Shown here one piece after another: positions 7,980 to 8,850 of a DNA stretch of 27,524 bases. How positions within the stretch are numbered: the stretch's first letter is position 1; each line of letters begins with the position of its first letter. The stretch lies in sequence record PQ571297.1, one strand, 5' to 3'. Origin of the DNA: Klebsiella phage KO-TP1. The position numbers and the translations under genes were made by a program. The notes beneath the pieces are model-generated. The model was given only the letters and a program-made list of their open reading frames with translations, searched no databases and had not been told where the DNA came from.

Positions 7980-8208
7980 TCGTTACTCCATTTTCTTTTG
8001 TGCTGGCTGCACCTTCACGCTCTGGCTGATGCCATACTTTACGATGAATGCTGACACCTTTACGTAATCAGGCTCTCGCTGAATCATCTGGCAGAAAAAC
8101 GTCAGTGTTTTGAGATAGAGCGGCAGCCACCAACTGCGGCCTTTGTGATATCAAATAATCTACGAAAAACACTTGTTAGAGTTATTCGCTATCTGTATCT
8201 GTGAAGTA

Positions 8209-8454
8209 ATGTCGTGTTTATTCAAAGCAATGGCATGTAAGATACTTATTAATGATGTTCCCACCATCCAGCCACGAGGTATTGCAGTGATAAACATTTT
8301 TCTGAGAATTTTTAGTTTTTTTGCCTCCATATGGGCAGGTCTAAGCAACGAGCAGAAAGATAGAATCATCAACATCCTTGTTGATGCATTTGAAGTCATT
8401 TTTCGCAAGTATTATCGCGATAGCAAAAATGAGGTGAAGCATGGTGAAGCTTAA
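8209..8454 (+). CDS. Small membrane protein with one predicted transmembrane helix (INIFLRIFSFFASIWAGL). First gene of the moron cassette.
   Basis: Lies in the AT-rich island 8100-8850, on the strand opposite the lysis and terminase genes. The start is uncertain: ATG at 8209, or a GTG at 8287 that has a GAGGT Shine-Dalgarno. The stop overlaps the start of the next gene. Confidence 0.4.
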   Translation: MSCLFKAMACKILINDVPTIQPRGIAVINIFLRIFSFFASIWAGLSNEQKDRIINILVDAFEVIFRKYYRDSKNEVKHGEA

Positions 8455-8770
8455 AGATGTACTGCGCAATGTCATCTCCGGAGCGAATAAACAGCTTCCA
8501 GACCACTCGACAACACAACCTACGGCGTCTACTGCCCTAGCAACTGAGATTTACACCAAAATCTCTTGCATAGGTCCCAAAGTGTTAGGTATTGGTGGAG
8601 ATAAGCAATCTGATTTTGCCAATCAAGCCGCTGAACTGGTGACAAATGAAGAATTTCTTGACGAGCTTCAAGATAAAATTGGCCCCCCTCAAGCCAATGA
8701 GAATGAAGACGAATTTACTCATAGAGCAAAAAAAGAAATGCGTAACCTATTGAAATCAAAATTAAAATAA
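8441..8770 (+). CDS. 109-aa hydrophilic, acidic hypothetical protein. Second gene of the moron cassette.
   Basis: Near-perfect GAGGTGA Shine-Dalgarno 5 nt before the ATG. It overlaps the upstream gene's stop. The region is AT-rich. Confidence 0.6.
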   Translation: MVKLKDVLRNVISGANKQLPDHSTTQPTASTALATEIYTKISCIGPKVLGIGGDKQSDFANQAAELVTNEEFLDELQDKIGPPQANENEDEFTHRAKKEMRNLLKSKLK

Positions 8771-8850
8771 ATGAATCGGTTAGCTTTTTTCATTTCTGAT
8801 TACAATGCAATCAACGATAAGAAAAGCGATTTTGGCTTCATTTACTATTC

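Follow-up and report, generated by a model that had tools for sequence, protein, structure and literature searches.

A candidate mobile two-gene module in the Rz-terS junction of a lambdoid Klebsiella prophage

We analyzed a 27,524-nucleotide (nt) stretch of Klebsiella phage KO-TP1 (sequence record PQ571297.1; hereafter the window) in which an AT-rich island at 8010-8850, lying between the S/R/Rz/Rz1 lysis genes and the terminase gene terS, holds two overlapping plus-strand genes encoding proteins of 55 and 109 amino acids (aa). Sequence comparisons indicate that this pair is a phylum-spanning, self-contained mobile module and that the island is a lysogen-type moron carrying it as a horizontally mobile two-gene operon. 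The two proteins probably function together, a 1:1 complex being the simplest form, because they are strictly paired in a fixed order, no third gene accompanies them and natural fusions of the two exist. Small mobile accessory modules, carried as morons of prophages or as cassettes of integrons, are a category already well known; the pair adds a new family to it but does not amount to demonstrably new biology. The two genes are as follows.

8287-8454, plus strand: small-subunit gene, 55 aa, GTG start, defined by its open reading frame (ORF) and its homologues.
8441-8770, plus strand: large-subunit gene, 109 aa, product predicted to be all-helical.

A conserved gene pair and its two proteins

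A word-indexed homology search returned close relatives in Klebsiella and Pluralibacter alone, and a scan of genome contigs with closely related sequences returned nothing, so that a deeper alignment was required. An exhaustive HMMER search gave 179 large-subunit representatives at 50% identity, mostly of 93-130 aa, from Proteobacteria, Cyanobacteria, Planctomycetes, Verrucomicrobia, Binatia and other taxa, at least six phyla in all. Motif-guided scans gave loci in Pseudomonas, Methylococcaceae, Rhodanobacter, Pantoea, Aliivibrio, Pandoraea and Iodobacter, in several cyanobacteria (including Synechococcus), in Binatia, in a planctomycete (Schlesneria) and in a verrucomicrobium (Chthoniobacterales); 24 viral contigs were among them. 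A 598-aa repeat protein in the homology list (P0029) was judged an unrelated low-complexity similarity and was set aside.

Hidden Markov model searches of six-frame translations found both genes, adjacent and in the same order, at 58 of 62 loci, the other four being a remnant or contig ends broken at insertion sequences (IS). At every intact locus a small ORF lies directly 5' of the large gene, and the two genes of the relatives overlap by 4-8 nt or are separated by gaps of 0-12 nt. A third conserved gene was sought beside the pair and none was found, the neighbors being heterogeneous. Two of the representatives are in-frame fusions of both proteins (P0106 and P0116, the latter from the complete genome of Ca. 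Uabimicrobium amorphum); BBM83360.1 is one such natural fusion.

At least 1000 contigs carry one large-subunit allele and 513 carry another, and every record calls the protein hypothetical. K. pneumoniae dominates the 90% cluster of the 109-aa protein, and an identical protein is annotated in Klebsiella oxytoca CP130257.1. A DNA search of 5426 complete E. coli genomes detected no homologue of either enterobacterial type, and homologues occur in only 2 of 50,697 phage records and on one plasmid.

An initial annotation, made from the letters of the window, had described two plus-strand genes with overlapping stop and start, each preceded by a Shine-Dalgarno (SD) sequence. The ORF listing agrees, the small gene ending at 8454 and the 109-aa gene starting at 8441, and the GAGGT and GAGGTGA sequences lie where that annotation had placed them. 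With this 14-nt overlap and an SD for each gene, the two are translationally coupled. Between the two starts that had been offered for the small gene, 8209 and 8287, conservation favors the latter. The frame is open from 8173, and conservation is confined to its last 55 codons; the 5' extension from 8173 or 8209 is not conserved in relatives, whereas the GTG at 8287 and the GAGGT seven bases upstream of it are kept together in the Klebsiella relatives, which have no earlier start. The homologues of the small subunit are likewise 47-58 aa long, save for one called at 66 aa from an upstream start.

Both genes are real, because the ratio of nonsynonymous to synonymous substitution rates (dN/dS) of the 109-aa gene is about 0.10 against the Klebsiella relatives and both proteins are conserved across phyla. 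The corresponding ratio of the small gene is 0.23-0.34, a value drawn from few substitutions, and purifying selection acts on both genes. Note that an antisense ORF of 69 aa (8160-8408, minus strand) is often annotated publicly and the GTG-start small gene omitted; the same antisense calls are found at other loci of our collection (L049/L050, 2720-2929, and L062, 2220-2429). The small subunit is under-annotated in databases because this ORF is often called in its stead. The plus-strand frame is the real one, because it is the frame conserved across phyla.

The large subunit is marked by a motif that hardly varies, IGxPxxxE(S/T)E(D/E)EFVxRAK, with a basic helix after it at the C-terminus; the fuller shared C-terminal motif reads F..EL...IGxPxxxE(S/T)E(D/E)EFVxRAK..M..LL..KLK. 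The middle of the protein is variable, rich in S, L, A and T, and seldom hydrophobic enough to span a membrane. The 109-aa protein had been described as acidic and hydrophilic. Hydrophilic it is, but its isoelectric point of 6.1 (16 D+E versus 15 K+R) puts it near neutrality. AlphaFold2 with a deep alignment modeled the large subunit alone as an all-helical protein with a predicted local distance difference test score (pLDDT) of 78.8, whereas an earlier structure prediction from four sequences had been poor (pLDDT 56).

The small proteins share the motif M(L/F)..L...F......W..L(S/P)...K..II...V..FE..FR.YY, which is laid out as a predicted Trp/Phe-rich amphipathic helix, an L-S/P break, a second helix (KxxIIxxxVxxFExxFRxYY) and a basic tail. 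The initial annotation had given this protein one transmembrane helix and had read the pair as a small membrane protein with a soluble partner. The helix of the window protein is indeed a borderline case (Kyte-Doolittle 19-residue mean of 1.77), but a mean of at least 1.6 is reached by just 3 of 38 small proteins and by 5 of 102 large ones, so that a conserved transmembrane helix, as in a holin/antiholin or a single-pass effector, failed this test. The helix carries at least one charged residue in all 38 small proteins and two or more in 24 of them, and the polar positions of the N-terminal helix recur with helical periodicity. The conserved feature of the small protein is thus the Trp/Phe-rich amphipathic helix rather than a transmembrane helix, and by this hydropathy and charge analysis the membrane-plus-soluble architecture is no conserved property of the family.

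Neither protein had been recognized initially, and the library searches bear this out. The two window proteins gave no match in Pfam, NCBIfam or PADLOC, and the sole hit was that of the 109-aa protein to a PHROG of uncharacterized role (phrog_2336, E 3.5e-58, residues 1-109 of 109), the small subunit having no PHROG match. Extending the Pfam search to 102 large-subunit and 27 small-subunit homologues gave no meaningful match, and PDB profile searches with both subunits gave marginal matches only. A fold comparison had been suggested; the AlphaFold2 model of the large subunit was searched and found no matching solved fold, and the model shows no enzyme fold. Reading of the sequences found no signal peptide or lipobox in either protein. 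The top PDB sequence match aligned 19 residues of the invariant motif with the inhibitory segment of yeast IF1 (E 0.04), and hhalign gave the motif 59% against yeast IF1 over 19 columns. This likeness was rejected, since bovine IF1 gave an hhalign probability of 6.9% and none of the 102 members matched the Pfam IF1 family. Searches of the literature on superintegron toxin-antitoxin systems, integron defense cassettes and Klebsiella prophages gave no description of these proteins; the paper on the closest phage does not discuss the pair, and the deposited record calls it hypothetical.

Genomic contexts and natural disruptions

Klebsiella prophages carry the pair in the same slot between Rz and terS, where the terminase and lysis genes are mosaic. 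In another enterobacterial prophage group, whose large subunits are 43-45% identical, the pair lies beside Rz and endolysin, and at one locus of this group (L027) it adjoins a gpA-type terminase, exactly at the bor position. A survey of this junction for alternative cargo, proposed in the initial annotation, showed that the slot varies among siblings sharing terS and terL. E. coli GB089, with the same terS/terL, has two unrelated small co-oriented genes there, and Klebsiella phage 2b LV-2017 (KY271395) has an unannotated opposite-strand ORF encoding a 212-aa DUF4145/HEPN protein (L057, 2703-3341, plus strand), which is likely to be abortive-infection-type cargo.

The pair is also found in integrons. 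On chromosome 2 of Vibrio paracholerae it forms a single superintegron cassette of 617 bp, measured from one Vibrio cholerae repeat (VCR/attC) to the next (L048; repeats at 7690-7755 and 8307-8372, intI at 2103-3065). The cassette lies a few cassettes from intI and infC-rpmI-rplT, amid inverted ParE/Phd cassettes, and is itself sense-oriented, with the R' sequence GTTATGC 35 nt ahead of the first ATG; a second copy lies elsewhere in the array (L047, about 7845-8303). The assignment to an integron cassette holds for this V. paracholerae homologue; the window copy is a prophage copy, where no attC search was made. Pseudoalteromonas and Photobacterium copies lie within cassette-like arrays. In Oscillatoria the pair adjoins NACHT/NB-ARC, DUF433/DUF5615 and XisH/I genes, and the Providencia copy shares an integrase island with genes for type I restriction-modification, RhuM and ArdA. 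The islands that hold the pair abound in restriction-modification, toxin-antitoxin and IS genes. Matches to defense models make up about 5% of 109 neighbors, including PD-Lambda-2 A and B and methyltransferases, a neighborhood that is suggestive of defense.

Truncated homologues pointed to disrupted K. pneumoniae assemblies, whose contigs end at the IS insertions. One insertion lies in the small gene at about codon 19 and leaves the large gene intact (L060 and L061, about nt 1-126). An independent one lies in the large gene at codon 50 and leaves the small gene intact (left side, L063 2650-2721; right side, L058/L059 1-75). The element has the inverted repeat GGAAGGTGCGAATAAG and the 4-bp targets at the two sites are CTAA and TTAG (YTAR), features by which we take it to be a member of the IS5 family. 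At a further locus (L062) the large gene is frameshifted and the small gene intact. Because either gene has been lost alone in viable isolates, strict toxin-antitoxin dependence seems unlikely in either polarity, with the caveat that losing a gene would have no effect in those K. pneumoniae strains if they do not express the operon.

The island within the KO-TP1 prophage

By gene content, from the ORF listing and family scans, the KO-TP1 window is a lambdoid prophage. Its minus strand carries the O/P replication genes, NinB, NinG, Q, a lambda-S-type holin, endolysin, Rz/Rz1, terS, terL and a portal gene; the integrase and the cI-like repressor share the strand of the module. The features that surround the pair or are cited below are these.

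5905-7377, minus strand: terL.
7377-7979, minus strand: terS (phrog_1206).
7980-8137, no strand: variable junction beside terS, a recombination breakpoint placed by blastn breakpoints.
8138-8286, plus strand: upstream region, putative promoter and leader, delimited by conservation among relatives.
8771-8850, no strand: AU-rich spacer between the convergent 109-aa gene and Rz, examined by folding.
8851-9315, minus strand: Rz (PF03245).
8889-9095, minus strand: Rz1, embedded in Rz.
9312-9791, minus strand: endolysin, which we take to be lambda-R-like.
17950-18744, plus strand: S24 cI-type repressor.
26207-27370, plus strand: integrase.

The initial annotation had called the island a two-gene, opposite-strand, AT-rich moron at the lambda bor/lom position. 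Gene order, strand and composition all agree with this: guanine-plus-cytosine (GC) content falls to 0.37-0.44 over about 8000-8900 from 0.52-0.58 in the flanks, and all flanking lysis and terminase genes lie on the minus strand. The position is that of bor, but not of lom, since the lambda slot downstream of Rz holds bor alone.

On the Rz side the module is colinear with its counterparts in Klebsiella prophages, the block 8138-9315 being about 86% identical overall, and the terS side is a recombination breakpoint. Blastn homology breaks at 7975-7982, 8009 or 8138, depending on the relative, and relatives, whether or not they share the module, cease to be homologous within 7980-8137, which holds only two unconserved minus-strand ORFs of 34 aa. 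An alignment of 8100-8300 of the window with five relatives from Klebsiella has a mean column identity of 92%, with nearly all of its mismatches upstream of about 8138. The conserved stretch 8138-8286 contains the palindrome TGATATCA (8145-8152), a tandem TATCTGTATCTG and the GAGGT SD, and presumably holds the promoter of the pair.

Downstream, an 8-bp inverted repeat (8803-8810 and 8855-8862) had been proposed as a bidirectional terminator for the convergent junction. The repeat exists, but it has a 44-nt spacer, no T-run and one arm within Rz, and is of chance-level frequency (8-bp inverted-repeat pairs occur at 1.85 per kb in the window and in 11% of junction shuffles); it is absent from the minimum-energy fold and was not picked up by the terminator scan. 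The spacer 8771-8850 folds as a long imperfect hairpin, not as a canonical intrinsic terminator, with a minimum free energy of -25.2 kcal/mol (z = -2.3 on the plus strand and -2.0 on the minus strand). The terminator scan found nothing in 8771-8850 and nothing usable for the plus-strand operon, and an Rfam search of 7900-9000 found no RNA family. By analogy with lambda, a strong bidirectional terminator at the island would probably be counterproductive, because late transcription of the minus strand, which depends on Q, has to pass through the island on its way to terS. Another inverted repeat, GC-rich and of 9 bp (TCAGGGCCG / CGGCCCTGA, 8889-8897 and 8916-8924), falls within the 3' end of Rz and Rz1 and has no T-run after it.

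Other parts of the window drew attention as well. A second AT-rich island (GC 0.39-0.40) lies at 13500-14500 in the nin region, on the opposite strand; its ORF at 13595-14389 (plus strand) encodes a 264-aa protein with a weak partial match to AAA_13 and is a moron candidate. The stretch 10200-10500, between Q (10870-11559, minus strand) and the holin gene, is also AT-rich (GC 0.40-0.44); Klebsiella relatives have a tRNA-Asn and a plus-strand ORF at this site, and the window has no tRNA there. The minus strand at 12985-13428 encodes a HolE-like protein, homologous to the theta subunit of DNA polymerase III and extended at its N-terminus by about 64 aa.

Possible roles of the pair and comparison with known systems

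Our leading guess, which we hold tentatively, is that the pair is a non-enzymatic two-subunit module for phage exclusion or defense, or for competition between mobile elements, and benefits the lysogen. What leads us to it is the slot, the occurrence of HEPN cargo in a sibling phage, and the settings in integrons and islands. The 55-aa protein, as a helical hairpin, and the 109-aa helical protein would form a 1:1 complex that acts by stoichiometric binding, not catalysis, because the complex has no recognizable catalytic domain. The loop-helix motif IGxPxxxE(S/T)EDEFVxRAK would be the functional surface for a widely conserved target, and the aromatic amphipathic helix would probably hold the complex against the cytoplasmic membrane, on its inner side. 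Transcription of the pair would start on the cI strand in the lysogen, within the 150 nt of conserved sequence ahead of the small gene, and in lytic growth it would be opposed, as for lambda bor, by late transcription that is antiterminated by Q and has to run across the island to terS. The wider claim, that this undescribed phylum-spanning family of helical two-subunit (sometimes single-chain) proteins is a new non-enzymatic system of anti-phage or inter-element conflict, present in thousands of Klebsiella genomes and stockpiled in integron cassettes, is one we regard as rather doubtful.

Several observations weigh against a defense or competition role. A simple scan found no plus-strand promoter of sigma-70 consensus, and the Vibrio cassette has no room for a promoter of its own. 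The defense enrichment among the neighbors is modest, the 5% figure having no formal background, and many neighbors of the module are housekeeping genes. The search of the 102 large-subunit homologues against PADLOC-DB v2 gave no credible match (best E 0.0013, each hit from a single member). Complex formation and the membrane location are themselves steps that we infer from sequence. Moreover, phage sensing explains the strong conservation of the motif across phyla no better, and perhaps less well, than a universal cellular target would.

That last point leads to another explanation, in which the complex is a modulator of host physiology that tunes a universal component (the membrane, energy or translation machinery) for a benefit in stress or fitness, and is thus ordinary adaptive cargo. 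The near invariance of the motif from Enterobacterales to Cyanobacteria and Planctomycetes, the promoterless sense cassette (as in ordinary adaptive cassettes), the many housekeeping neighbors and the tolerated loss of either gene all fit such a role. Yet its lone sequence lead is the motif match to yeast IF1, which fails against bovine IF1 and Pfam IF1, and the patchy distribution linked to mobile elements is more typical of conflict systems; we consider it possible, but on balance unlikely. A classical toxin-antitoxin or addiction module is probably not what the pair represents. There, one protein would be toxic, for instance by a small helix damaging the membrane, and the partner would neutralize it by binding, which would stabilize the prophage, integron or island. 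The initial annotation had seen this type of architecture in the pair, and the genes are indeed small, adjacent, co-oriented, overlapping and coupled in translation. They move as a stand-alone unit through prophages, superintegron arrays and toxin-antitoxin-rich islands, and the aromatic amphipathic helix resembles membrane-active peptides. These likenesses are countered by the K. pneumoniae isolates in which IS5-family insertions or a frameshift inactivate one gene alone, by the natural fusion proteins, and by the Vibrio cassette, which is promoterless and sense-oriented with about 35 nt before its ATG whereas the neighboring ParE/Phd cassettes are inverted. Searches of Pfam, NCBIfam, PADLOC and PDB (sequence and fold) found no toxin or antitoxin superfamily, no known toxin fold and no DNA-binding antitoxin domain. 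We therefore judge an addiction pair improbable.

An accessory pair serving the phage's own lysis or packaging, such as a holin regulator or a terminase cofactor, would account for the position that the pair takes in two prophage lineages, with the lysis cassette on one side and terS on the other. We think this very improbable, as the genes run opposite to the late operon, siblings with the same terS/terL and lysis genes lack them, the small protein has no holin-like transmembrane topology, and the family is found in 2 of 50,697 phage records while occurring in non-phage settings that include integron cassettes and cyanobacterial chromosomes. The notion that the island is a non-coding AT-rich spacer with chance ORFs draws on the openness of both strands of AT-rich DNA and on the disagreement of gene callers, which sometimes choose the antisense 69-aa ORF. 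It merits practically no credence and is refuted by conservation: hundreds of protein-level homologues across phyla keep the motifs of both proteins, dN/dS is about 0.1, and the SD sequences and start codon are conserved.

Treating the pair as a conserved portable unit turns anonymous prophage ORFs into a defined family. If it is a true system of defense or competition, it would add a very small, non-enzymatic type and would tie the morons of prophages to integron cassettes as shared reservoirs; were it instead a modulator of a host machine, the invariant motif would mark the interaction surface. The whole cassette is under 700 bp and hence tractable to experiment.

Set beside known systems, the pair goes beyond PHROG 2336, which covers the large subunit only and has no function attached. 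It differs from the small anti-phage systems in that none of its 102 members has a PADLOC match and it has no enzymatic effector domain. Still, it shares the kinds of genomic location of the PD-Lambda and PD-T4 systems and of the integron defense cassettes, and its occasional single-chain fusions recall the fused sensor-effector proteins of fused toxin-antitoxin defenses such as CapRel. The toxin-antitoxin cassettes of Vibrio superintegrons (ParE/Phd, HigBA, RelBE) are likewise compact two-gene cassettes bounded by attC, in the same array, but the module is sense-oriented, has no room for a promoter, has no toxin-antitoxin homology, forms fusions and tolerates loss of a single gene. The last comparison is with lambda bor. 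Bor is a single outer-membrane lipoprotein, whereas the two helical proteins of the module, predicted to be cytoplasmic or peripheral, lack a lipobox and show no homology to Bor. In setting the two are alike: both occupy the slot after Rz/Rz1 of an S-R-Rz cassette, opposite to the late operon and on the cI strand, both are of atypical composition, and, like bor, the module is dispensable in sibling phages.

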